Shown here: piece after piece, positions 7,411 to 57,782 of the stretch
Layout: the number at the start of each line of letters is the position of its first letter
Numbering within the stretch: position 1 is the first letter of the stretch
Source of the DNA: a virus
Taxonomy: Duplodnaviria > Heunggongvirae > Uroviricota > Caudoviricetes
DNA: 64,000 nucleotides
Direction: 5' to 3' (one strand)
IMG/VR virus record: IMGVR_UViG_3300035661_000015
Location: 1 to 64,000 of that record
Translations under genes and position numbers: made by a program
Notes under the pieces: model-generated
Told to the model about the DNA's origin: nothing
The model's input: the letters and a program-made list of their open reading frames with translations, nothing else
Databases searched by the model: none

Positions 7411-8586
7411 GTGTCTAAGTTAATTTTTGGCAACCACCAAGAGAATACGTTGACTCAGGTTGATATGGTTATTGACTCGGGGGCCGAACACTTTGTTCTA
7501 TGTGCTGACGGGCACTTGGGTTACGGTCATCCAATCGGCGGAGTCGCCGCTTATAAAAATAAAATTTCCCTTTCGGGTGTTGGTAAAGATATTTCGTGTG
7601 GAAACTTAGCTTCACGGACGACCATGAAAGGCAAAGATTTAGCGGAAAATATAGGGGCGATTATGGATGAAATTGTTGCCAAAATCTCTTGTGGTGTTGG
7701 TCGCAATAATAAGGGGCGTGTCGATTCGCCCGTATTCGATAATCCCCTATTCGCCACCAATGATATTCTCCGCTCACTTTTGCCTATGACTAGAGATCAG
7801 TTTGGAACAATTGGGGCCGGTAATCATTACGTAGACCTTTTTGTTGATGACTCAGATGATTCTGTTTGGATTGGTATTCACTTCGGAAGTAGGGGGCTTG
7901 GATATAAATTTGCTTCCCACTATTTTGATATGGTAAATTATAAGGACGGATATCTTGTAAAGCCCGCCTTATTAGATGCTGACTCTAATGCTGGTCAAGA
8001 ATATTTGGCTGGAATGGAATTGTGTGGAGATTATGCTTACGAGTCAAGGTATTGGGTGGGCCATAAGGTTGCTGAAATTCTTGGGGCAAATATTACTAAA
8101 AGTGTCCACAATCACCATAATTATTGTTGGATAGAAGAACATTTTGGTGAGACCTACTATGTTGTACGTAAAGGGGCAACCCCCGCTTTTCCCGGCCAAC
8201 TTGGTTTTATTGGCGGGTCAATGGGTGATAATGCCGTAATCGTAGAGGGTGTTGAGTCCGAACTATCCAAAAGTACTTTATATAGTACAATTCATGGGGC
8301 CGGTCGTGATTTTAGTCGTGCCGAAGCTAAGGGGCGATACGTCAAAGATGAGAATGGTAAAAAGCAAAGGGGTGTCGGTCGCGTTCGTCACGATGAAATG
8401 CAAAAATGGCTGAATGATAAGGGCGTAGTAGTTCGTGGCGGCGACTTAGACGAGGCCCCACAAGCTTATCGGCGACTTGATGATGTTCTTAAGTTTCACG
8501 AGGGTACAATTAAAATTCTACATACCCTTAGGCCGGTCGGGGTTATGATGGCTGGACCAAATACTTTTGACCCATATAAGGACTAA
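7411..8586 (+). CDS. rtcB: RtcB-family RNA 3'-phosphate/5'-OH ligase
   Basis: CADGH, GSRGLG, NHHNY and IHGAGR motifs characteristic of RtcB. Confidence 0.8.
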   Translation: MSKLIFGNHQENTLTQVDMVIDSGAEHFVLCADGHLGYGHPIGGVAAYKNKISLSGVGKDISCGNLASRTTMKGKDLAENIGAIMDEIVAKISCGVGRNNKGRVDSPVFDNPLFATNDILRSLLPMTRDQFGTIGAGNHYVDLFVDDSDDSVWIGIHFGSRGLGYKFASHYFDMVNYKDGYLVKPALLDADSNAGQEYLAGMELCGDYAYESRYWVGHKVAEILGANITKSVHNHHNYCWIEEHFGETYYVVRKGATPAFPGQLGFIGGSMGDNAVIVEGVESELSKSTLYSTIHGAGRDFSRAEAKGRYVKDENGKKQRGVGRVRHDEMQKWLNDKGVVVRGGDLDEAPQAYRRLDDVLKFHEGTIKILHTLRPVGVMMAGPNTFDPYKD

Positions 8587-39997: not shown

Positions 39998-40256
39998 AAA
40001 AATTACCTTTTTCGATCATTATAATGAAAAGCATGTTGATTATGAAATCTGTAAAACAGAGCAAGAGTTTTTAGATATTTATAATTCTTATAATACTCTT
40101 GATGGCGATTCAGTAATTATGCTTGACGAGGGCGAATTGCCGCCACAGGATTGGATTATAGGTCAAATAGATTTTGGTAATTCTTTAGTAAAAAGTGGTA
40201 GGGCGATTATAGAATTATACACACCGCTTTTGGGAGATAAAAATGTCTGTAAATAA
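39987..40256 (+). CDS. Hypothetical protein (start supplied by the forward motif)
   Basis: ORF track. Confidence 0.4.
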   Translation: MRWAKITFFDHYNEKHVDYEICKTEQEFLDIYNSYNTLDGDSVIMLDEGELPPQDWIIGQIDFGNSLVKSGRAIIELYTPLLGDKNVCK

Positions 40257-40905
40257 ATGGCCCAACTACCCCGATGACGCACACATTAGGGCTTTAGAAA
40301 ATTCACACGTTGGTTTTTATTCATATAGTACTAGAAACCCTGTTCTACCCACTCCTAATATATTTAAAAAAACTGATGATCAGGAGGTTAGTCGGGATAA
40401 ATTTATAGAATCTGTAACCACTAAACCCCACTGTCTTGTCGGCACCGCCGCCATGATTCGCCATAAAAACCACTTTTTAGTTGGTATCCGTAAGGGGTCT
40501 CATTGTCCCGGCATTTGGGCTTTTCCTGGTGGTCACGTCGAATTAGAAGACGAGTCCCTTAGGGCCGCCACCGAACGCGAAGTCGCCGAAGAAGTTTTGG
40601 ATTATAGGACGGGCCAAGGTCTTAAGATTTTCACCTATGATTTTCGACTCGGAAGCCCCCAAGCTTTTTTAGTTCATAAAAAAGTTAATAATAATACAAA
40701 GTCCTATGTGACGATGTATATGGAATGCGAGCTAGATACTTGGGATAAAATTGATTTGGATCGGCCCCTACTTTCTCCGCTTAATGAACGTCATAAATGC
40801 GAACAGTGGGAGTGGAAAACCCTTGACAAGTTGCACGAAATAGAGTATAATAATAAAGAGTCGTGGATTCCATTGGATCTTATGAGGGAGTATTATGGTT
40901 TATGA
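40243..40905 (+). CDS. Nudix hydrolase
   Basis: Nudix box GGHVELEDESLRAATEREVAEEV. Confidence 0.75.
   Translation: MSVNKWPNYPDDAHIRALENSHVGFYSYSTRNPVLPTPNIFKKTDDQEVSRDKFIESVTTKPHCLVGTAAMIRHKNHFLVGIRKGSHCPGIWAFPGGHVELEDESLRAATEREVAEEVLDYRTGQGLKIFTYDFRLGSPQAFLVHKKVNNNTKSYVTMYMECELDTWDKIDLDRPLLSPLNERHKCEQWEWKTLDKLHEIEYNNKESWIPLDLMREYYGL
40762..40783 (-). repeat. Dispersed motif, reverse copy (in the Nudix CDS)
   Basis: CGGCCCCTACTTTCTCCGCTTA. Confidence 0.8.
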
Positions 40906-44463: not shown

Positions 44464-44535
44464 GGCCCATTCGTATAGTGGCTAAGACGACCGCTTTTCA
44501 GGTGGTAGAAAACGGATCGAAACCGTTATGGGCTA
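44464..44535 (+). tRNA. tRNA-Glu (anticodon TTC)
   Basis: Cloverleaf by eye: acceptor, D-arm, ACCGC-TTTTCAG-GTGGT, T-arm AACGG-ATCGAAA-CCGTT. Confidence 0.65.
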
Positions 44536-44692
44536 TCTTTAGTTATTGTCGCTTACATGGATAGTTTAGGCAATGAATAAAGAACGGTAAATTAAACATG
44601 ATGTTGCTGGACGGGAACATTGTATCTAAAATTTAATTTACTTACCCCGTCCATTAACTTTCTTGTCGGTGGTTCGATTCCCTCACTTATCT

Positions 44693-44767
44693 TCGGGGAG
44701 TGACGGTGTTGGTACTGTCAAAAGCCTTTGAAACTTTTTGACCTTGGTTCGATTCCAAGTCCCCGAA
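44693..44767 (+). tRNA. tRNA-Gln (anticodon TTG)
   Basis: Acceptor TCGGGGA/TCCCCGA; D-arm; loop CTTTGAA; T-arm CTTGG-TTCGATT-CCAAG. Confidence 0.65.
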
Positions 44768-44771
44768 CTTT

Positions 44772-44843
44772 GCCTGAGTAGCTTAATGGTAAAGCACCCG
44801 ATCTGTAATCGGGCAACTCGGAGTTCAAATCTCTGCTTAGGCT
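44772..44843 (+). tRNA. tRNA with anticodon loop TCTGTAA (apparent TGT, Thr; C at position 33)
   Basis: Acceptor GCCTGAG/CTTAGGC; D-arm GCTT/AAGC; CCCGA/TCGGG; T-arm. Confidence 0.55.
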
Positions 44844-44850
44844 CTTTAAT

Positions 44851-44921
44851 GCGTCAGTGATGTAGTGGTTGCATGAGACTCTTCCAAAGTCTATGAAAGA
44901 ATTCGATTTTCTTCTGACGTA
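44851..44921 (+). tRNA. tRNA-Gly (anticodon TCC)
   Basis: Acceptor GCGTCAG/CTGACGT; AGACT-CTTCCAA-AGTCT; T-arm AAGAA-TTCGATT-TTCTT. Confidence 0.65.
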
Positions 44922-45018
44922 CTAGCTGGACCATACCTAGTCTTTTTGTGATGAAAATAATGAAAAGTATCGTCCGTCTGGTGCTTAAAGGAATTTTTAT
45001 TAAAGGGAGCGTAGTTCT

Positions 45019-46337: not shown

Positions 46338-46644
46338 CATCTTGTATAAAGGGGTTCAACATACAGTGGTAGTTGACTTAGATGATTTTGACAAAGTATC
46401 TAAATATAAATGGCACTTGAATAAGCATAATAAAAAAGATGGGAGTGAGTTGAGGGTTCAAACAAATCTCCCAAGATCACAGGGAAAGCGTCCTAAGCTT
46501 AGGCTACATATTTTAATTGCGGGTAAGCCAAAGGAAGGAAACGTAGTTGACCACATAGATAGAAATCCACGTAATTGTAAAAAAGAAAATCTTCGTCACG
46601 TGAGCGTGGCGGAAAATAACCGCAATAGAGGCAAAAGAGAATGA
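46279..46644 (+). CDS. HNH homing endonuclease
   Basis: VVDHIDRNPRNCKKENLRHVSVAENN. Confidence 0.65.
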   Translation: MVSWFMKHDYRTQNNEVLFNILYKGVQHTVVVDLDDFDKVSKYKWHLNKHNKKDGSELRVQTNLPRSQGKRPKLRLHILIAGKPKEGNVVDHIDRNPRNCKKENLRHVSVAENNRNRGKRE

Positions 46645-48557
46645 GTATATTTGAAAAACGGGTAGCTTTTAAACCATATGAGTATCCAGATGTTCTAAAA
46701 TTTAGAGACGCTATCAATCATAGTTATTGGATTGTTACAGAATTTAATTTTTCTAGTGATGTACAGGACTTTAAAACTAATTTAACCGAAGTGGAGAGAC
46801 ATGCTATTAGGAACGCCCTTTTAGCTATTTCGCAGATTGAGATTTCCGTAAAAAAGTTTTGGGCAAAGATCGGGGATAAGTTTCCAAAGTCCGAATTTGA
46901 TCAGGTAGGTATAGTTTTTGCGGAATCCGAAGTTAGGCATGCTCAAGCTTATTCTGAGCTATTAGAAATTCTTGGTCTAAATGATGATTTTACCGGATTA
47001 CTTCAAGAGCCATCAATCCAGGGTCGGGTCGAATACTTAACAAAATATTTAAAAAACGCCTCAGATAACTCAAACGAAAACTATACATTGACATTGACTC
47101 TATTTTCTATTTTTATTGAGAATGTGAGTCTTTTTTCGCAATTCCTAATCATCCAATCGTTCAATAAATACAAAAATATATTAAAAGATATAGATAATGT
47201 AGTTCAGGCTACTCAGAAGGAAGAGTGTTATTCAGAAGATACTGATATTTTAACACCTAACGGTTGGGTGCCATTAAAAGATATAAAGAACGGAGATTCG
47301 GTTTATCAGTTTAAAAATGGTAAAATCACAAAAACAACCGCTTCAAATAAAATTGAGAGAGATTATAATGGACGGATGTATGAGATTGGTAATAAGTCAA
47401 GTAATTGCTTAGTAACTCCTGGTCATGAAATGGTTTATATCAACAAGATGGGGGATTATGAAAAGAATACCGCTAAAGATATTAAGTATCATTCAAAAAT
47501 AAAAATTCCTGCCGGTGGTATTTTAGAAAATAATTCTGAAGAAAAGTTGACGTGGAGTGAGCGTCTCCAAATCGCTATGCAATCTGATGCGACTAGATTA
47601 TATTGGATTAACGCCAATGGTGAAAAAATTTGGAGAGGAAAAGATGGTGGTTATAACTATGAGTTCACACTAACAAAACAAAGAAAAAAGGATAGGTTAA
47701 GATTAATTTTAAATAATACAAATATTGAGTTTGTAGAACAAGATATTGGTAAAGAGACGGAATTTAAAATAAAATATAACAATGATAATGATTATAAAAC
47801 ATTTACTTGGGTTGATTTAAGTAATAAAAATAAAGATTGGTGCATAGATTTTGTTCAAGAGTGCGTTGAGTGGGATGGATATAGAGGTGGCAGCAACATG
47901 GGGTTTAGCACTACGAATAAAAAGGTGGCCGATATTTTTCATGCTATTTCTGTACTGGCGGGTTATAGAACAAATCTTTTGACTAATAAAAGTAAAAGAG
48001 GATATAAGGATTGTTATAAAATTAGTATAAGTGAAAGGTCACTTACCCCATCTGGACACAGTTACGATAAAGTCGAACAAGGTTATAGTGGTATGGTTTA
48101 TTGCGTTACCGTTCCATCTGGAATCATTATCACAAGACGCAACGGAAAGGTTTGTGTTGCCGGAAATTGCCTACATGCACTTTTCGGGGTTTATCTGATC
48201 AAAGAAATTCAAAAAGAGTGTCCCGATTGGTTTAATGAGGATTTTTATAATAAGTTATATAGGGCTTGTAAGAAAGCGTATGAGGCAGAGGAAAAGATTA
48301 TAGACTGGATATTTGAAAAGGGTGAACTTGATTTTCTACCGAAAGATATTGTAAAAGAGTTTATTAAGGATAGGTTTAATGAGAGCTTACTTATGGTGGG
48401 CGGAAAAGAAGTTTTTGAAGTTGATACGGAGAAGTTAAGTTCTTTAAGTTGGTTCAACGAAGGTGTTAGTGGCCAGACCAGTACAGATTTTTTCCATAAA
48501 AAACCAGTGACTTATAGCAAAAAAACAAAATCAATCAAAGCGGGAGACTTATTCTAA
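46641..48557 (+). CDS. nrdB: Ribonucleotide reductase small subunit NrdB interrupted by an intein
   Basis: R2 ferritin-like fold motifs; extein junction QKEE|C...N|CLHALF matches RDEGLHCDF. Confidence 0.8.
   Translation: MSIFEKRVAFKPYEYPDVLKFRDAINHSYWIVTEFNFSSDVQDFKTNLTEVERHAIRNALLAISQIEISVKKFWAKIGDKFPKSEFDQVGIVFAESEVRHAQAYSELLEILGLNDDFTGLLQEPSIQGRVEYLTKYLKNASDNSNENYTLTLTLFSIFIENVSLFSQFLIIQSFNKYKNILKDIDNVVQATQKEECYSEDTDILTPNGWVPLKDIKNGDSVYQFKNGKITKTTASNKIERDYNGRMYEIGNKSSNCLVTPGHEMVYINKMGDYEKNTAKDIKYHSKIKIPAGGILENNSEEKLTWSERLQIAMQSDATRLYWINANGEKIWRGKDGGYNYEFTLTKQRKKDRLRLILNNTNIEFVEQDIGKETEFKIKYNNDNDYKTFTWVDLSNKNKDWCIDFVQECVEWDGYRGGSNMGFSTTNKKVADIFHAISVLAGYRTNLLTNKSKRGYKDCYKISISERSLTPSGHSYDKVEQGYSGMVYCVTVPSGIIITRRNGKVCVAGNCLHALFGVYLIKEIQKECPDWFNEDFYNKLYRACKKAYEAEEKIIDWIFEKGELDFLPKDIVKEFIKDRFNESLLMVGGKEVFEVDTEKLSSLSWFNEGVSGQTSTDFFHKKPVTYSKKTKSIKAGDLF
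47226..48167 (+). mobile_element. Intein in NrdB (Cys1 ... Asn, +1 Cys; about 314 aa with endonuclease-like middle)
   Basis: Begins CYSEDTD, ends VCVAGN followed by C; host protein continuity restored when removed. Confidence 0.7.
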
Positions 48558-51304
48558 TGGGTTATAGATGGTTAAATAAGTTATCACAAGATTTTCTTGA
48601 AAAAGACTACTTGCTACCAGGGCAAACGGTTGACGAACGTGTTAATATTATCTGTAATCATGCGGAAAATATTTTAAAATTACCGGGATTTGCAGCTAAA
48701 CTTAAGGCCAATTTTGAAAAAGGTTGGTATTCTTTTAGTACCCCAATCTGGACTAATTTTGGGACCGATAGAGGTTTAGCTATATCTTGTTTTGGTTCGT
48801 ATATAGAAGATACGATGGAGTCGATTGCGGGCACATGGGCCGAAGTCTGTATGATGACTAAACTAGGTGGTGGCACATCGGCTTATTTTGGCGATCTTCG
48901 CCCACGTGGGGCCGAAATTAAAAATAATGGAAAAAGTTCGGGTTCGGTCAATTTTATGGAAGCTTTTGATACCTTGATAAATATCGCTAGTCAAGGCTCC
49001 AGTAGACGTGGTAATTGTGCCGTATATTTGCCGGTTGATCATAAGGATATTGAAGAATTTTTACAGATCAGGCAAGAGGGGCATCCTATCCAAGACTTGT
49101 CTTTCGGCGTCTGTATTCCTGAGGGCTGGATGCAAAGCATGATTGATGGAGATCAATCTAAGCGGAAAATATGGGCCCGTATTTTGGAATGCCGATCTAA
49201 TATGGGCTATCCTTATATTTTCTTTTCGGATAATGTAAGTAATGGTACAGTAGATTGTTATAAAAATACGGATAGAAAAATCACCCACTCTAATTTATGT
49301 TGTGTTACAAAAGATCAGAGAGTTGTTTCGGATCGGGGGCTATTAACAGTTGAGGAATTATATAATATAGGAGGTGAATTAAAATTATTTGACGGGATCA
49401 ATCAGGTGTCGGCTTCGCCGATGTTAAAGATATCTGATTCTGAAGATATTTTTAAGATTACCCTAGATAATGGATTAACACATAAAGTTACTAGCGAGCA
49501 TAGAATTGAAACCAATAAGGGAATGGTAAAATTAAAAGATCTAAAAATTAGAGATAAGGTTGCAATTCAATTAAATACTGGTATTTTTGGTAATAAATCA
49601 ATGGAAGATGAGGCGTTTTTACTTGGAACCTATCAGGCTAATGGTACTCAAAATAAAGATAATATTTATCTTGATCTATGGGAACATAGTTTTGATCTAA
49701 TTGAAGAAATAGAGACTAGGTTTAGTAATGTGTTTTATAAATATAGTTGCGATAAGTATGATATTACAAATCAGTATAACTCAACTTTTCAAAGATCTAT
49801 TGATCCAACTAAATTTTATGATTGTGTCGTAACTGATTCGCCCATAAAGAAAAAGAGACTTGGGTCAAATTGTCTTAAAAAGGCACTAAATTTTGAAAAA
49901 GGATATATTCCTAATTGGATTTGGGAATCGGATGAAAAAACTCAGTGGCAGTATATTAGAGGCCTTTTCTACGCCGATGGCACTATCAGTATGACAAATG
50001 ATAAGGGTAGCCCTATTTACTTAAGCATCAGTAATATTAATAAAGCTTTTCTTGAAGAATTACAAATATTGCTTTTAAATCTCGGGGCAAGGTTTGCATT
50101 ATCTTTAGGTAATCCGGCTGGCGAAAGATCGCTACCAAATGGTAAAGGTGGTTATAGTCTATATAATTGCCAAGATTGCTATAGGCTAGTTTGTGGTAGT
50201 AAAGTTGCCGCATTATTATTTGAGAAGAATATACAATTTTTAACCCGTAAAGGTATAGAATTAGAAAATAGGGTATATAGGGACAATACCAAGAAATTCT
50301 CTAGAATTAAATCTATTGAGCATATTGGACAAGATTCCGTATACTGCTGTGAGGTTTATACCAATGATCACAAATGGGTTTGCAACGGAATAATTACTCA
50401 TAATAGTGAAATACTTTTACCAGATAACGCCGAAGAATCATTTGTATGTGATCTTTCTAGTATGAATATGATTTACTACGATGAATGGAAAGATACTGAC
50501 GCTATTGAACTACTGGTCTATCTTCTAGATGCGGTAATGACAGATTTTATTGAAAAGGCTAAGAAAATTAAATTTATGGAGCGGGCCGTTAGGTTTGCTG
50601 AAAATCATAGGGCTCTTGGGATCGGTTGGTTTGGGTGGCACAGTCTTTTGCAAAGTAAGATGATTGCTTTTGAAAGTATGGAAGCAAAGTATTTAAATAT
50701 TGAAATCGCCAAAAATATGAAAGAAAAAGCCTATGGGGCGTCGGCAAAAATGGCCGAAGAGTACGGTGAGTGTAAGATGACTAAAGGGTATGGACGTAGA
50801 CACGTAACACTTTCCGCAATCGCCCCCACAAAATCCTCTTCTTTTATTATTGAACAAGCCTCCGAAGCAGTCGAGCCCGATACGGCGAATATCACAGTCA
50901 AGGATTTAGCCAAGGGAAAAGTCACTATTAAAAATAAATACTTAATTAAAATATTGGAAACTAAGGGAAAGAATACTGAAAAAGTCTGGTCGTCTATTTT
51001 AAAAATGGGCGGATCTGTTCAACATTTAGATTTTTTAACAAATGAAGAAAAAGCGGTATTCAAAACCTTCGGAGAAATTTCTCCGCGTGAAATTATAATT
51101 CAGGCCGCCCAAAGACAGAAATATATTGATCAGTCTCAATCTATTAATTTAATGATCCATCCATCAGTACCGACTAAAGATGTAAATGCCCTACTTATTG
51201 AAGCTTGGCAAATGGGTGTAAAAACCCTATATTATCAAAAAAGTGTTAACGCCTCTCAAGAATTTGCTAAAAATATTCTGAATTGTTCGTCTTGCGAAGG
51301 TTGA
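48557..51304 (+). CDS. nrdA: Ribonucleotide reductase large subunit NrdA interrupted by an intein at the active-site NLC|SEI
   Basis: ATP-cone/RNR motifs; SNLC then intein then SEILLPDN. Confidence 0.85.
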   Translation: MGYRWLNKLSQDFLEKDYLLPGQTVDERVNIICNHAENILKLPGFAAKLKANFEKGWYSFSTPIWTNFGTDRGLAISCFGSYIEDTMESIAGTWAEVCMMTKLGGGTSAYFGDLRPRGAEIKNNGKSSGSVNFMEAFDTLINIASQGSSRRGNCAVYLPVDHKDIEEFLQIRQEGHPIQDLSFGVCIPEGWMQSMIDGDQSKRKIWARILECRSNMGYPYIFFSDNVSNGTVDCYKNTDRKITHSNLCCVTKDQRVVSDRGLLTVEELYNIGGELKLFDGINQVSASPMLKISDSEDIFKITLDNGLTHKVTSEHRIETNKGMVKLKDLKIRDKVAIQLNTGIFGNKSMEDEAFLLGTYQANGTQNKDNIYLDLWEHSFDLIEEIETRFSNVFYKYSCDKYDITNQYNSTFQRSIDPTKFYDCVVTDSPIKKKRLGSNCLKKALNFEKGYIPNWIWESDEKTQWQYIRGLFYADGTISMTNDKGSPIYLSISNINKAFLEELQILLLNLGARFALSLGNPAGERSLPNGKGGYSLYNCQDCYRLVCGSKVAALLFEKNIQFLTRKGIELENRVYRDNTKKFSRIKSIEHIGQDSVYCCEVYTNDHKWVCNGIITHNSEILLPDNAEESFVCDLSSMNMIYYDEWKDTDAIELLVYLLDAVMTDFIEKAKKIKFMERAVRFAENHRALGIGWFGWHSLLQSKMIAFESMEAKYLNIEIAKNMKEKAYGASAKMAEEYGECKMTKGYGRRHVTLSAIAPTKSSSFIIEQASEAVEPDTANITVKDLAKGKVTIKNKYLIKILETKGKNTEKVWSSILKMGGSVQHLDFLTNEEKAVFKTFGEISPREIIIQAAQRQKYIDQSQSINLMIHPSVPTKDVNALLIEAWQMGVKTLYYQKSVNASQEFAKNILNCSSCEG
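49301..50404 (+). mobile_element. Intein in NrdA (Cys1 ... His-Asn, +1 Ser; 368 aa; LAGLIDADG-like GLFYADGTI)
   Basis: CVTKDQ ... ITHN|S; homing endonuclease motif inside. Confidence 0.8.
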
Positions 51305-53689: not shown

Positions 53690-54253
53690 ATGGACATTTT
53701 GAACCACAAGACTTTGGTCCTAAATCAGTGCGGTACTCCCATAAAGTGCTTGCATTGGTCTAGGGCCATTAGTCTTGTTTATGTGAGAAATAAGGCAACT
53801 GTTTTAAATTATTATGATATTAAACTTAGGGCGGGTCACGGTAAAAATTATCCCTTACCTGCTGTTATTATTCTCAAGAAGTATGTTCGTCAAAACTATC
53901 TTCATGTTGGAATATCTAAGCGGAAAATATATGTGAGGGACAAATATGAGTGCCAGTATTGCGGCGAACGGCTAAAACAAGACGGTCTGACCATTGATCA
54001 TATTATTCCAAAATCCTTCTTTAAAAAGGGGCCGCAGGTGGCGGTCGATGGAAAGCAGTTGGTCAATTCGGGCTCTTGGCGTAATTTAATCACGTCATGT
54101 AAGCCATGTAATACGAAAAAGGGCAATCGGACCCCCGAGCAGGCGGGCATGAACCTCTTGACTTTGCCCCGTATTCCTGATAGAATAGAGATCAAGTTGG
54201 GACTCTTAAGTGAAAGTTTTCCAGATGAATGGAGAAATTACATTGCAGTTTAA
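53690..54253 (+). CDS. HNH endonuclease
   Basis: CQYCGERL...DHIIPKS...CKPCNTKKGN. Confidence 0.65.
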   Translation: MDILNHKTLVLNQCGTPIKCLHWSRAISLVYVRNKATVLNYYDIKLRAGHGKNYPLPAVIILKKYVRQNYLHVGISKRKIYVRDKYECQYCGERLKQDGLTIDHIIPKSFFKKGPQVAVDGKQLVNSGSWRNLITSCKPCNTKKGNRTPEQAGMNLLTLPRIPDRIEIKLGLLSESFPDEWRNYIAV

Positions 54254-54523
54254 AATCATTAAAGATAGCGATACTATTGAGAATGTTGTAGATTTCCTTA
54301 TGGATAACGACTGTTTTTATATTGTTGAGACCGAAGGTGGTGAAATTAAAATTCTATCACAAGTCTCGTTGGTATATAGTTGTTATAAAAGGATTATCCA
54401 AGTAATGTCGGGACCGAATGAACTTTTGGCCCAGGGTATTGGGGCACTTTTAAAAAGGATCGAAGCCCTTGAAGATGCTACATTTTCTTTCCCAATCCTT
54501 AAGTAAAAAGGATAAGTGAAAAA

Positions 54524-55657
54524 GTGTTAAATCCAAATAATTCCATCATTGATTCTGGATATAAATTTGTTCTCTCAATTACGGGGGGTGGTCAAGAGAT
54601 TATTGGCGAACTTACAAAATATGGGGGTATGTCATCATGTCTTCTAGAATGTAATGTGCCGTATTCTCAACCCGCCCTTGAAAAACTTATCGGTCACCTA
54701 CCAACTAAAACTGTAAGTAAAGAGACCGCACTTAAATTAGCTATGGTGAGCTATCTTAGAGCAAAAGAGTATACGGGCGAAAATAAAAATATTTATGGAA
54801 TTGGCGTGACCTCCTCTTTGGTAAAGCTGGACGGTGAACGAGGTGGGCGTGAACATAAGGTCTGTATTGGTTTACATGGTACAAATACTTATTACCTTGA
54901 AATTATTTTAAAGCAGAATCGAACGAGATTAGAAGAAGAAGAGTTGGTTTCAAATATCATTGGGGCGATTTTAGAATATGCTGGTTATGAGTTCGATATA
55001 TTTGTGAATTGTTCTAGAAGTCAAATTAATGGACTTTTATCTACCTTAGACTTTTTTAATATTGAACTTGGGTTTTTTAAGTCTGAATATAATAATGCCT
55101 ACATATTTTTAAAAGATGGTCTAGCTGCTAGTCAGTGTGAAACTCCGCTTAATCCAACACTCTTTCCTGTTTCTATGAATCCACTTCATAGTGGGCACAT
55201 TACTATAAAAGAGTTTTATGAAAAAAAATACGATAAAACTGTTTATTATGAACTATGTCTAAAAAACGCCGACAAAGGACAGCTTGATTTTATTTCAACC
55301 CAAGAAAGAATTAAACAGGTTAATGAATTGTTTATTACAAACTTACCTTTGTTTATTGATAAATTTAACAAATTTCCTTATTCGTCTTTTTTAATGGGGG
55401 TCGATACCTTTCATCGTATCCTTAATCCTAAATACTATAACTTAGAGACTATTAGAGATGTAATTAAAAAATACAACCATCACTTTGATCGTAGATCGTC
55501 TCTACATATTTTTAATAGAGTTGGTTACGAGGGAACTTATAATTATCTTAAGGGCTACCTTGAAGCCCTAGATCTTGATTGTTCTGGTATCATTTTTGAA
55601 GATGATTTTATTCCAACAGACATTTCTTCTACTAAAATCAGAAAAGGGCAGCTATGA
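54524..55657 (+). CDS. Bifunctional CinA/PncC-like domain plus NMN adenylyltransferase (HxGH, ISSTKIR)
   Basis: N-terminal SITGGG...ECNVPYS (CinA C-terminal-domain-like); C-terminal NPLHSGH and ISSTKIR. Confidence 0.7.
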   Translation: MLNPNNSIIDSGYKFVLSITGGGQEIIGELTKYGGMSSCLLECNVPYSQPALEKLIGHLPTKTVSKETALKLAMVSYLRAKEYTGENKNIYGIGVTSSLVKLDGERGGREHKVCIGLHGTNTYYLEIILKQNRTRLEEEELVSNIIGAILEYAGYEFDIFVNCSRSQINGLLSTLDFFNIELGFFKSEYNNAYIFLKDGLAASQCETPLNPTLFPVSMNPLHSGHITIKEFYEKKYDKTVYYELCLKNADKGQLDFISTQERIKQVNELFITNLPLFIDKFNKFPYSSFLMGVDTFHRILNPKYYNLETIRDVIKKYNHHFDRRSSLHIFNRVGYEGTYNYLKGYLEALDLDCSGIIFEDDFIPTDISSTKIRKGQL

Positions 55658-57240
55658 ACCTCAACACTTTTTTAAGTGGCCCACGAAAGATCCCCGTACC
55701 ACTACGCGGCGACTTTTATACCGTCACAAGTGCCCCCGTTATTTCCAAATCAGCTAAGCGGAGAAGTGTGTATAATTTTACTAATCGTGTTAGTCCAATG
55801 ACCGGCCTTCCACAGGGCGTTGCGGGCGACTCACGTATGGTTCTTTTTGGACTGACCGATTTTATCCAGCGGGAATTGATTTGCCCAATTAATTATAGTG
55901 ATATATCCGACACGGCGGATTTCTTAAAAGATGCCCACTCTTTTGGCGACCCAGTCCCCTTTGATAAACAAATGTGGATTCGTGTGTTAGATAAGTACAA
56001 TGGTTTTTTGCCAATTGAGATTAAGGCCCTTCCGGAATGCTCTACTTTTTGGCCCAATGAGCCCATAATTGAAGTCCAATCTTTGGACGAGGGGTTTGGG
56101 GAAATCGCCGCAATTATAGAGGCCAACTTAGTTGGCATGGTTTCTTGTGCAACGGCCCGCCTAACCTTAAGTCGCCACCTATTTAAGAGAATGCAACAGC
56201 AAGTTAAAAAGTACAACCCCTCCTATTCCTCCGCTCAAGTTGATAGCATAGCATCCTTTATGGTTCACGATTTTGGAATGAGGGCATCATCTACGCCGGA
56301 AGAAGCTGAAATTTATGGTGTAGCTCACCTTTTAGCCGGATTTAATGGTACGGATACGACAAGTGCAGCATATTTAGTACGAAAGAATGGTGCCCCTAGT
56401 CCTATCGGCACGAGTATTTTGGCCCTAGCCCATCGTATTGTACAGAGTCACGACGAAGAACAAAGTTCTTTTGAGGCTCTTTTTAATGCAAGTCAAGGTA
56501 CGATTGGGAGTTATGTGGGCGATTGTTATAATTTTAATAATGCGGTCGATAAATTCCTTGTAGAGATTGCCCTAAGAACTAAGACAATTGTAGTTGCTCG
56601 TCCTGATAGTGGCGATTATATTAAAAATATGCTCTATGTGGTTGACACGGCTATCAAGCACGACCTTTTTACCATTTCGCGAGATGGATTAAAAGAAGCT
56701 ACTAATCTACGTTATATTTTGGGCGACTCAATGACTTGGGCTAAAATGTGGGAAAGTTTTCAAGTCCTAGAACGCCGTGGTGTAAATCCAACAGGTTTTG
56801 GTATTTTTGGGGTTGGGGGCTGGATGCGTAATAGCGTTAATCGCGATAGCCTTTCTTCCGCTTATAAATTGGCCGAACATGGTTCATATCCAGATTTTAA
56901 GAAGGTAGTAAAACTTTCCGAGATTGCCGCTAAAATGTCGATTCCCGGCCAAACAAAGATTTTGCGGGGCAACTTGGTTGGAAAATCCCCCACAGTTGTT
57001 GCAATTGAAGAACCGGGAGAGGACCAGAGAGTTGTTTATTATAGGGGCGATATGGGTGAAAAGAGTTTCTTGGCTCCATGTCTAGAAGATTTTAATACGA
57101 AGCGGCAACGGTGTATTGAAGAGTTTGATAGCTATACTCATGTAAACTGTGATTATGGGACCAGAAACTTTTTGCCAACATCAAAGGCTATTCGAGATTT
57201 TCAACAAGAGGCAATTAATAAATACAGGGGTAACAAGTGA
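55654..57240 (+). CDS. nadV: Nicotinamide phosphoribosyltransferase (NAMPT/NadV)
   Basis: HDFGMRASSTPEEAEIYGVAHLLAGFNGTDT matches the NAMPT core. Confidence 0.75.
   Translation: MNLNTFLSGPRKIPVPLRGDFYTVTSAPVISKSAKRRSVYNFTNRVSPMTGLPQGVAGDSRMVLFGLTDFIQRELICPINYSDISDTADFLKDAHSFGDPVPFDKQMWIRVLDKYNGFLPIEIKALPECSTFWPNEPIIEVQSLDEGFGEIAAIIEANLVGMVSCATARLTLSRHLFKRMQQQVKKYNPSYSSAQVDSIASFMVHDFGMRASSTPEEAEIYGVAHLLAGFNGTDTTSAAYLVRKNGAPSPIGTSILALAHRIVQSHDEEQSSFEALFNASQGTIGSYVGDCYNFNNAVDKFLVEIALRTKTIVVARPDSGDYIKNMLYVVDTAIKHDLFTISRDGLKEATNLRYILGDSMTWAKMWESFQVLERRGVNPTGFGIFGVGGWMRNSVNRDSLSSAYKLAEHGSYPDFKKVVKLSEIAAKMSIPGQTKILRGNLVGKSPTVVAIEEPGEDQRVVYYRGDMGEKSFLAPCLEDFNTKRQRCIEEFDSYTHVNCDYGTRNFLPTSKAIRDFQQEAINKYRGNK
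55755..55773 (+). repeat. Dispersed motif, degenerate forward copy (in the NAMPT CDS)
   Basis: CTAAGCGGAGAAGTGTGTAT. Confidence 0.5.
56214..56236 (-). repeat. Dispersed motif, degenerate reverse copy (in the NAMPT CDS)
   Basis: CAACCCCTCCTATTCCTCCGCTCA. Confidence 0.45.
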
Positions 57241-57782
57241 TTACTATTGAATATATAAATGGCGATCTTTTTAATGATGATAATGATGTAATCGCACATG
57301 GTTGTAACTGTTCGGGCGGATTTGGTTCGGGTGTTGCGGGTATTATCTCTAGAGAATTCCCAGAGGCGAGAGCTAATTATATTAAAAAACATATGGTGGG
57401 TGAATTAAGTCTAGGTCAAATTTTCTTTGTAGAGACCGATAGTGTTCATCCTGAATATATTGTTAATATGATGACTCAGCAAAATTATGGCGGGGACAAA
57501 ACTGTCGTTTATGTTAGCTATGAAGCTATTCGTGAATGCTTTAGGGGCCTATTTAAAAGTATTGATTTCTTTTTTTCTCACCGCTATGAGACCGCGTACA
57601 GTGAACCTGACGGAGAATATATGTATGCGACTAGCAAACCTATTACTATTGCTATTCCTAAAATTGGTTCGGGCCTAGCTAATGGTGACTGGGTAGAGAT
57701 TCATGAAATTATAAAAGAGGTAGTAGAAGAGTTATCTGATTTCTGTTCTTTGAACATGGTCTTGAAAATTTACTCACTATAA
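57237..57782 (+). CDS. Macro-domain protein (ADP-ribose binding/processing)
   Basis: DVIAHGCNCSGGFGSGVAGII. Confidence 0.7.
   Translation: MITIEYINGDLFNDDNDVIAHGCNCSGGFGSGVAGIISREFPEARANYIKKHMVGELSLGQIFFVETDSVHPEYIVNMMTQQNYGGDKTVVYVSYEAIRECFRGLFKSIDFFFSHRYETAYSEPDGEYMYATSKPITIAIPKIGSGLANGDWVEIHEIIKEVVEELSDFCSLNMVLKIYSL

Follow-up and report, generated by a model that had tools for sequence, protein, structure and literature searches.

A predicted NARP2-type NAD+ synthesis operon with a fused adenylyltransferase and a macrodomain in an uncultured large phage

Depletion of NAD+ is among the commonest outcomes of anti-phage defence, and the study of NARP1, NARP2 and NARP3 is a recent and fast-moving field. 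Do three adjoining genes of an uncultured large phage (g1, g2 and g3; 54524..57782) form such an NAD+ reconstitution system, and by which route would they make NAD+? The genes lie in a stretch of 64,000 nucleotides, which is referred to here as the window.

Gene arrangement and the predicted route to NAD+

The three genes are all encoded on the + strand and overlap by 4 bases at each junction. At the g1-g2 junction (ATGA) the start codon of g2 lies over the stop of g1, and at the g2-g3 junction (GTGA) the start of g3 lies over the stop of g2. An initial annotation had described three translationally coupled genes for a CinA/PncC-like domain fused to an NMNAT, a NAMPT and a Macro domain; the overlaps agree with the coupling, and all four domain calls were upheld by profiles, fold comparison and motifs. 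Scans for promoters and terminators gave counts not clearly above shuffled expectation and no signal that bounds the operon, and a nucleotide search of the region 54524-57782 against 50,697 phage records returned no match.

By its published definition, NARP2 combines Nampt with Nmnat (in Vibrio phage KVP40, NadV and NatV; Osterman et al., bioRxiv 10.1101/2024.02.11.579819). In experiments the KVP40 pair overcame Thoeris, DSR and SIR2-HerA, and also aRES (10.64898/2026.01.28.702374). The likeness to phage NAD+ reconstitution that had been suggested for the window stands. Like NARP2, the window operon joins a phage Nampt to an NMN adenylyltransferase and has no Adps, and an ADP-ribose-handling module is attached to it. 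The predicted route, from nicotinamide and PRPP via NMN to NAD+, is common to both. Judging from the encoded proteins, the operon is probably a NARP2-type module for NAD+ synthesis or reconstitution that serves NAD+ upkeep against NAD+-destroying defences, although we hold this with some reserve. The g2 product would convert nicotinamide and host PRPP to NMN, and the C-terminal domain of g1 would adenylylate NMN with ATP to NAD+. The benefit to the phage would be that NAD+ stays available under TIR, SIR2, SEFIR or RES-type defences.

The initial annotation had the genes rebuild NAD+ from both nicotinamide and ADP-ribose. The nicotinamide route is the predicted one, but a route from ADP-ribose is not encoded, as PRPP would be the substrate and the window has no Adps or Prs. 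Tblastn with the Adps of Vibrio phage KIT04 and a phage Prs-like protein gave no match at E<1 in the 64-kb window, whose parent contig measures at least 129 kb, and none at E<=1e-4 across the 23 related loci scanned, which derive from a metagenome scan with g2. This absence argues against NARP1. The initial annotation also pointed to a Nudix hydrolase at 40243. It lies 14 kb away and has generic Nudix matches only; its match to the Nudix domain of NadM is merely of the size of a Nudix box (48 aa). It was left unassigned as to substrate and not counted as part of the pathway.

A CinA/PncC fold joined to an adenylyltransferase

The first gene, g1 (54524..55657, + strand), encodes 377 aa. Its C-terminal domain (55139..55654; approximately aa 206-377) is a HIGH-superfamily nucleotidyltransferase of the NadD/NMNAT type. 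It has the NadD/NMNAT fold and both signatures, (H/T)xGH and ISSTxxR, as HSGH at residues 222-225 and ISSTKIR at 367-373; throughout the g1 family, HxGH and ISSTxxR do not vary. By sequence g1 is not a canonical NadD ortholog, as it reaches 15.7 bits where the NCBIfam equivalog TIGR00482 requires 112.45. The predicted NMN adenylyltransferase may prefer NMN or NaMN; its sequence does not discriminate between the two.

The N-terminal domain (54524..55003; approximately aa 1-160) has the fold of the CinA C-terminal domain, which was detected by profiles and fold comparison only. A single-sequence search with g1 yielded no match in PHROGs or the PDB, and the profile scores are low: 13.1 bits for Pfam PF02464, under the gathering threshold of 23.5, and 12.4 bits for NCBIfam PRK00549 against a cut-off of 379. 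Known PncC/CinA NMN deamidases (PF02464; AtCinA, 2A9S; TtCinA, 4CT8) use a Ser/Lys dyad, whereas in the g1 family the Lys is replaced by L, F or M and the Ser by Thr, Ala or Ser. The equivalent of AtCinA K63, the general base, is L52 in g1, and it is Lys in none of 150 family representatives; L, F, M, I or V occupies this position in 147 of them, and the remaining three have Q, W or T. The nucleophile S31 corresponds to T20 in g1; among the 150 representatives, 124 have Thr here, 15 have Ala, 10 have Ser and one has Val. By contrast, the equivalents of S48, Y58 and R145 (S37, Y47 and R135 in g1) are kept in 149, 150 and 149 representatives, respectively, with an approximate register for R145. 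Since the general-base Lys has given way to a hydrophobic residue, the domain appears catalytically degenerate for NMN deamidation; as the residues that bind the NMN phosphate are retained, it is probably a binding module rather than a deamidase. The domain context differs as well, because PncC/CinA proteins are fused to a COG1058 pyrophosphatase domain and g1 instead to an adenylyltransferase.

If the domain were an active deamidase, g1 would be a NaMN-preferring NadD, and synthesis would run from NMN via NaMN to NaAD, with the host NadE acting last. The PncC fold, the conserved binders of the substrate phosphate and the Thr at the nucleophile position in most representatives are in line with this scheme. 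So is the general preference of bacterial NadD enzymes for NaMN. Against it, the general base is never Lys, neither in g1 nor in any of the 150 representatives, and both the S31A and the K63A mutants of AtCinA are inactive (PMC5384747). The Ala at the nucleophile position in 15 of the 150 representatives also argues against catalysis, and the phage would be left reliant on a host amidation step. An active deamidase is thus very improbable. The degenerate domain would most likely capture or sense NMN (or NaMN) for the adenylyltransferase without deamidating it.

A divergent Nampt

The second gene, g2 (55654..57240, + strand; 528 aa), matches phrog_448 (2.4e-50), PF04095 (7.4e-15) and Nampt in the PDB (2.7e-24), which sustains the NAMPT assignment. 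All core motifs are conserved (HDFGMR at 205, GTDT at 232, ALAH260, RPDSGD at 316 and NRD at 396). The protein keeps the equivalents of human H191/F193/R196, D219, H247, R311/D313 and R392/D393, in a human numbering checked for the motif positions only. However divergent, with 180.9 bits, far under the cut-off of 405 for the NCBIfam Nampt equivalog, and approximately 26% identity to NadV of cultured phages, g2 is by its sequence a Nampt with an intact catalytic core. Its subfamily has Ala in place of E246 and Arg in place of S248, which flank the catalytic His, and a stretch of its own, GG[WY][LM]RN.

This stretch falls into the region of the helix motif that forms the selectivity clamp of Namat (PMC12774641). 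The region reads GGWMRNSVNRD in g2, GSFTYQYVTRD in the Namat of KIT04 and GGGLLQxVxRD in phage NadVs. Because of the E246 and S248 changes and the aromatic residue at clamp position 3, the donor specificity of g2 is not certain. A Namat-like g2 would join nicotinamide to ADPR-pyrophosphate, as in NARP1, with g3 acting on the ADP-ribose derivatives. The W or Y at clamp position 3 throughout the subfamily, where Nampts have Gly or Ala, fits such a chemistry, and a Poa1p-like macro protein is the known accessory of NARP1 (Osterman et al., bioRxiv 10.64898/2026.01.28.702374). On the other hand, clamp position 7 is non-aromatic in the subfamily (Ser, Thr, Ala or Asn), the motif begins with GG instead of GS, and neither the window nor the 23 related loci contain an Adps or Prs homolog. 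An adjoining NMNAT is almost always present, yet it would be superfluous in NARP1. Taken together, Namat-like activity is highly improbable, and Nampt chemistry is retained as the predicted first step.

The macrodomain and its candidate substrates

The third gene, g3 (57237..57782, + strand; 181 aa), is flanked by the Nampt gene and a PhoH gene and encodes a macrodomain of the ALC1-like class (TARG1/DarG/SCO6735/BT1257/Poa1p). It classifies as a Poa1p-like macrodomain and matches phrog_335, which is annotated as 'phosphatase' (3.4e-35). One close comparison is with NARP1-AP, which consists of Adps, the Adpp macro protein and Namat (10.64898/2026.01.28.702374). The comparator was the syntenic NARP1-AP operon of phage KIT04, which belongs to the same subfamily as the Adpp characterised from Vibrio phage Gary. 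The g3 product aligns end to end with the KIT04 macro protein at 25% identity and the conserved motifs are common to both, although g3 has an insertion of approximately 20 residues and is more DarG-like. NARP1-AP and the window operon thus share a Gln-type macrodomain of the Poa1p/TARG1 class inside a phage NAD+ reconstitution operon, but the partners are Adps and Namat in the former and Nampt and NMNAT in the latter. With these partners, the ADPR that a phosphatase releases would have no direct way back into NAD+. Furthermore, NARP2 alone defeats aRES (10.64898/2026.01.28.702374), so that an ADPR-1''-phosphate phosphatase would be superfluous for NAD+ recovery by this route.

From its sequence, g3 may act as an ADPR-1''-phosphate phosphatase or remove ADP-ribose from DNA or protein. 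Most likely it would clear an ADP-ribose derivative produced by NAD+-consuming host defences, either the ADPR-1''-phosphate that RES-type phosphorolysis of NAD+ yields or ADP-ribose on phage DNA or protein. Assigning the substrate from the nearest solved structure was abandoned, as a NARP1-AP macro protein itself most resembles TARG1 and BT1257.

Alternatively, g3 could be independent of NAD+ synthesis and merely co-transcribed with g1 and g2. In that case it would be a glycohydrolase resembling DarG/SCO6735 that removes ADP-ribose linked to thymidine in phage DNA and so counteracts DarT. DarG and SCO6735/BT1257 are thymidine-ADPr DNA hydrolases (PMC9411070), whereas g3 sits in a phage NAD+ synthesis operon. 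The match of g3 to the DarG model spans model positions 1-90 of 338, with 59.3 bits against 250. DarG possesses a C-terminal DarT-binding domain and a DarT partner, and g3 is without either. At the position of the catalytic Lys of DarG/TARG1 (K80 in DarG), g3 has Gln81, which is invariant among its homologs. This residue had been considered to exclude DNA de-ADP-ribosylation, but the argument was dropped because SCO6735, which has Gln at the same position, still supports dT-ADPr hydrolysis (PMC9411070). The nearest g3 homologs do not adjoin Nampt genes, and among the loci compared Macro-Nampt adjacency occurs in the window only. An anti-DarT role of this kind is a possibility to be taken seriously, albeit short of likely. 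The initial proposal that the Macro protein belongs to the pathway is not supported in that form: translational coupling in this one genome is what speaks for it, and the location of the nearest homologs away from Nampt genes does not.

Macro proteins of the T4 Tk.4 type fall into the same PHROG as g3 (phrog_335) and are 36% identical to it in a local alignment. Their genes are located in the midst of early genes, close to tk, vs and regB, whereas g3 lies beside NAD+ synthesis genes. The Tk.4-type family comprises 1,810 records at E<=1e-3 and is widespread in large phages; the name Tk.4 is absent from a 2022 survey (PMC9503650).

Related loci and the third-gene slot

A scan of viral contigs with g2 as a single protein recovered no loci, and with a g2 alignment two IMG/VR loci only. 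In the metagenomic loci, the pairing of Nampt with an adenylyltransferase is conserved: of the 15 g2-subfamily loci whose upstream flank is long enough, 13 have an NMNAT gene within approximately 3 kb upstream, of which seven are CinA-like fusions, four stand-alone proteins of the type of the g1 C-terminal domain and two NadM. The slot after Nampt is occupied by Nudix in eight loci, by NADAR in three and by Macro in the window, all of them ADP-ribose-handling domains. The g3 product would thus fill a slot that Nudix or NADAR holds in related operons.

These neighbourhoods also bear on another explanation, in which the operon provides and recycles the NAD+ that ADP-ribosylation by the phage itself consumes, instead of countering depletion. 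A phage ADP-ribosyltransferase would use NAD+, g2 and g1 would regenerate it from the freed nicotinamide, and the macrodomain would serve as eraser or for clean-up. Among the nearest relatives, whose g2 is 51-54% identical, the conserved gene order is WGR-PARP, a gene of ~200 aa, a g1-like fusion, Nampt, a gene of ~150 aa and NADAR; this flanking of the pair fits ADP-ribosylation at least as well as counter-defence. One locus (L013) additionally has Tpt1 and an RtcB that shares 54% identity with the RtcB of the window, and two others (L020 and L022) carry a PARP-like gene 6 kb downstream. The 2022 survey records NADAR beside NadM/NadV and PARP-type ARTs as frequent among phage ARTs (PMC9503650). 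However, the 64-kb window contains no homolog of PARP, NADAR or Tpt1 (tblastn, E<0.01) and no NAD+-dependent ligase was found in it, and more distant members of the g2 subfamily show the order NMNAT-Nampt-Nudix without PARP. We therefore regard a supply role for phage ADP-ribosylation as unlikely for the window operon, for which NAD+ upkeep against host defences remains the favoured reading. The frequent PARP-like neighbours nonetheless raise the question whether such operons serve offence by the phage in addition to counter-defence.

The window operon does not overturn current understanding. The published surveys consulted name NadM and NadR only and do not list an adenylyltransferase of the pseudo-PncC type, so that the Nampt route appears to occur in uncultured large phages with an undescribed type of adenylyltransferase. 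For accessory enzymes, NARP1 is the only precedent reported to date; here an exchangeable ADP-ribose-processing slot follows Nampt. More speculatively, and as something we consider conceivable rather than probable, the pseudo-PncC-NMNAT fusion might, next to NadM and NadR, represent a third and large class of adenylyltransferases that partner phage Nampt. The degenerate domain of the fusion would capture or sense NMN to channel or gate NAD+ synthesis, and the third cassette, whether Macro, NADAR or Nudix, would be exchangeable and tuned to the ADP-ribose derivative that arises from local host defences or from a phage PARP-like enzyme. If so, this would be a modular 'NARP2 with accessory' system, the counterpart to the NARP1 accessories.

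The g1 family is big and unannotated and offers a test case for pseudo-enzyme domains in metabolic channelling or sensing. In an exhaustive HMM search the family numbered 3,408 representatives, and no fewer than 805 clusters had E<=1e-30, which overturned an earlier view of the family as rare, which had been based on 28 matches. The cluster names carry almost no taxonomy; one is a 'hypothetical protein' of a Planctomycetota MAG.

A coupled three-gene operon in a large phage

The three open reading frames of the initial annotation lie exactly where it placed them, all on the plus strand, and the motifs it quoted are found in this region. The first gene, g1 (54524-55657; 377 aa, GTG start), encodes a CinA/PncC-like domain fused to an NMNAT-type adenylyltransferase, g2 (55654-57240; 528 aa) a divergent Nampt, and g3 (57237-57782; 181 aa) a macrodomain protein. 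An ATGA is common to the g1/g2 junction and a GTGA to the g2/g3 junction, and purine-rich stretches lie directly 5' of both overlaps (AAAAGGG and AGGGG, respectively), a classic translational coupling arrangement. Upstream, an HNH endonuclease gene (53690-54253), whose product may be a homing endonuclease, is separated from g1 by only a 98-aa ORF (54210-54506). The window comes from a large phage that is uncultured, and it codes for PhoH, HNH endonuclease, RtcB, RecA-like and Dam-like proteins, five tRNAs and a ribonucleotide reductase with its best match in an uncultured 595-kb phage. No nucleotide match was found among 50,697 phage records, and a 128,912-bp JGI contig carries an identical g1 protein.

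Judging by sequence, the locus appears to consist of a NARP2-like core (the phage Nampt plus Nmnat route), made up of a pseudo-PncC-NMNAT fusion and a Nampt of a distinct clade, with a macrodomain accessory. In the pathway we propose, g2 would convert nicotinamide freed by NADase defences, together with host PRPP, to NMN. The C-terminal domain of g1 would then form NAD+ from NMN and ATP, with NMN held or sensed by the degenerate PncC domain, and g3 would clear an ADP-ribose derivative made by NAD+-consuming immunity. We consider this scheme as a whole, including the roles of the PncC domain and g3, reasonably probable, and place greater confidence in the two synthetic steps taken alone.

The predicted Nampt and its adenylyltransferase partner

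By its sequence matches, g2 is a Nampt-family enzyme. It matches phrog_448 ('nicotinamide phosphoribosyl transferase'; 2.4e-50), PF04095 (7.4e-15) and Nampt structures solved for bacterial and mammalian enzymes (~1e-24). The Nampt core residues are kept in HDFGMR (human H191/F193/R196), GTDT (D219), RPDSGD (R311/D313) and NRD (R392/D393), and the catalytic histidine lies within ALAH260; the human numbering follows what we take to be the human sequence and served solely for motif placement. In human Nampt, D219 confers nicotinamide specificity. The protein scores 180.9 bits against an NCBIfam cut-off of 405 bits and is only ~26% identical to cultured-phage NadV. It falls in a subfamily of 214 or more metagenomic proteins that share 40-55% identity with g2, many of them from 100-200 kb contigs; in this subfamily the flanks of the catalytic histidine are altered from AxEHS to ALAHR. 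The helix that discriminates Nampt from Namat (motif definition in PMC12774641) reads GG[WY][LM]RNxxxRD in the g2 subfamily, GSFTYQYVTRD in the Namat of Vibrio phage KIT04 and GGGLLQxVxRD in phage NadVs. The subfamily is a distinct Nampt clade. Of the two aromatic positions with which Namat stacks adenine, it has one and lacks the other; a Namat-like g2 using ADPR-PP is highly improbable, because Adps, the partner of Namat in NARP1, is missing from the 64-kb window and from the related loci scored.

To place g2 in context, 23 related loci were scored by tblastn and HMMs, 22 of the g2 subfamily and one distant relative (L008, 34% identical). Where the upstream flank sufficed, an NMNAT gene was found at most ~3 kb upstream of Nampt in 13 of 15 loci, with the window counted in and L020/L022 taken as one. 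It takes the form of a CinA-like fusion (window, L002, L010, L013, L014, L028, L032), a stand-alone adenylyltransferase of the g1 C-domain type (L020/L022, L024, L029, L033) or a complete NadM (L021, L008), and was not detected in L025 and L027. Since, in addition, neither the 23 loci nor the window contain a Prs/Adps homolog, the adenylyltransferase-Nampt pair represents the conserved core, as in the published definition of NARP2. The third gene position varies and is taken by enzymes that handle ADP-ribose: downstream of Nampt lies a NadM-type Nudix in L020/L022, L023, L024, L026, L029, L031, L033 and L034, NADAR in L010, L013 and L014, and a macrodomain in the window only. In L025 and L027, downstream proteins of ~290-306 aa are weak CinA-like matches. 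The L027 Nampt gene resides on a 1.56-Mb contig (Ga0172379_10000001), and the g2 homolog P0076, likewise on a 1.56-Mb contig, bears the NCBI name Candidatus Woesearchaeota.

In the closest relatives, a WGR-PARP gene and NADAR flank the NMNAT-Nampt pair, joined in L013 by Tpt1 and RtcB, so that the operon may feed a phage ADP-ribosylation or RNA-repair system. We consider it rather unlikely that it supplies NAD+ for phage ADP-ribosylation; homologs of PARP, NADAR, Tpt1 and LigA are lacking within the 64-kb window, which covers half of the contig. Among L010, L013, L014 and L002, the WGR-PARP-type ADP-ribosyltransferases are encoded one or two genes upstream of NMNAT-Nampt (for example, L014 1824-3110); the Nampt operon of L013 has Tpt1, PARP and NADAR nearby, and in L020/L022 the PARP-like match is downstream, 6 kb from Nampt. 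The RtcB RNA ligase of the window (7411-8586; 1.8e-62) is 54% identical to that of L013.

The N-terminal domain of g1 resembles the NMN deamidase AtCinA, in which the substitutions S31A, K63A and R145A each abolish activity and the phosphate of NMN is bound by S48 and Y58 (PMC5384747). When g1 is aligned by profile with TtCinA and AtCinA, its L52 takes the place of the lysine of 'YSxxAK'. When 1.84 billion representatives were searched exhaustively by HMM, this CinA-like variant was recovered in 3,408 proteins at E<=1e-3 (805 at E<=1e-30). Among the best 150 of the 3,408, the lysine position is occupied by L/F/M/I/V in 147 and by lysine in none, and the position of the nucleophilic serine by Thr (124), Ala (15), Ser (10) or Val (1). 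The equivalents of S48, Y58 and R145 are retained in 149, 150 and 149, respectively, and 123 of the 150 carry an adenylyltransferase domain, in every case C-terminal to the CinA-like domain. We do not regard the domain as a conventional deamidase; the simplest reading is that it still grips a 5'-phosphoribosyl pyridine nucleotide and has lost amide hydrolysis. An active deamidase, which would route synthesis via NaMN, is very unlikely given the missing catalytic lysine.

A 2022 survey of viral NAD+ systems names NadM and NadR as the only NadV partners (PMC9503650), and a CinA-like/NMNAT fusion is mentioned neither there nor in the literature searched. The pseudo-PncC-NMNAT fusion is previously undescribed yet widespread. 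The members of the CinA-like family seen in cellular contexts (Planctomycetota-like contigs) have no adjoining Nampt gene. Downstream of a g1 homolog in a phage-like contig (L003, 6772-8322) lie genes for an AAA_33 kinase and a Prs-like protein; this contig has two CsrA genes and no Nampt within its 12.6 kb, and may hold a different NAD+ or PRPP-related combination.

The macrodomain and ADP-ribose handling

In g3, the position of the catalytic lysine of DarG/TARG1 is Gln81. SCO6735 also has Gln at this position, where it is required, and still cleaves thymidine-linked ADP-ribose (PMC9411070). The Poa1p-like macrodomain Adpp has been demonstrated to convert ADPR-1''-phosphate, which the RES-type defence aRES produces, to ADPR; 15% of NARP1 operons contain Adpp, a survey in which only NARP1 neighbourhoods were scanned (10.64898/2026.01.28.702374). 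One such Adpp-containing NARP1 operon, in Vibrio phage KIT04, is ordered Adps-macro-Namat, and its macrodomain aligns with g3 over the full length, with every conserved motif in common at 25% identity. As this Adpp-type protein is itself closest in sequence to TARG1 and BT1257, similarity rankings cannot decide the substrate of g3. We propose that g3 is a macrodomain accessory of a type previously reported only for NARP1. NARP2 alone suffices against aRES (10.64898/2026.01.28.702374), and a phosphatase would thus be a clean-up or recycling step rather than a requirement.

No Nampt genes lie beside the nearest homologs of g3 (~42% identical), so that support for its putative functional tie to g1 and g2 comes from the 4-base overlap present in this genome and from the analogy to the Nudix/NADAR slot. 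That g3 is an independent anti-DarT hydrolase is conceivable, if on balance somewhat doubtful, and would not conflict with the main explanation as far as g1 and g2 are concerned. One close g3 homolog (P0151, 43% identical; L066 5001-7297) directly abuts a gene for an NAD+-dependent DNA ligase on the opposite strand.

The initial annotation had the operon rebuild NAD+ from both nicotinamide and ADP-ribose products and pointed to a Nudix hydrolase. Its interpretation holds in part; a route from ADP-ribose to NAD+ is not encoded here, with Adps absent and the Nudix substrate not assignable. The Nudix gene itself is real (40243-40905; PF00293, 6.8e-10). A role in the pathway is not supported, as it lies 14 kb away, has only generic Nudix matches in PDB and matches the NadM Nudix domain over no more than the Nudix box (48 residues).

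Further features of the window

Four tandem paralogous ORFs (100-849, 849-1514, 1514-2320 and 2320-2802) without a Pfam match are 92-97% identical over their first ~430 nt and then continue into Ala-rich repeats (AADAAYAAA...) that vary and have a period of 9 nt; GC content is 54% over 100-2802 and ~37% elsewhere in the window. An Intein_splicing match lies in the central part of the ribonucleotide reductase small-subunit ORF (46641-48557; 638 aa), which is therefore probably an nrdB with an intein; the large subunit comes next (48557-51304). The five tRNA genes (26221-26302 and 44464-44922) comprise a Glu, Gln, Thr and Gly cluster and a separate tRNA-Tyr, an 82-nt call with the unusual anticodon ATA inside 1.2 kb of sequence that contains no long ORF.
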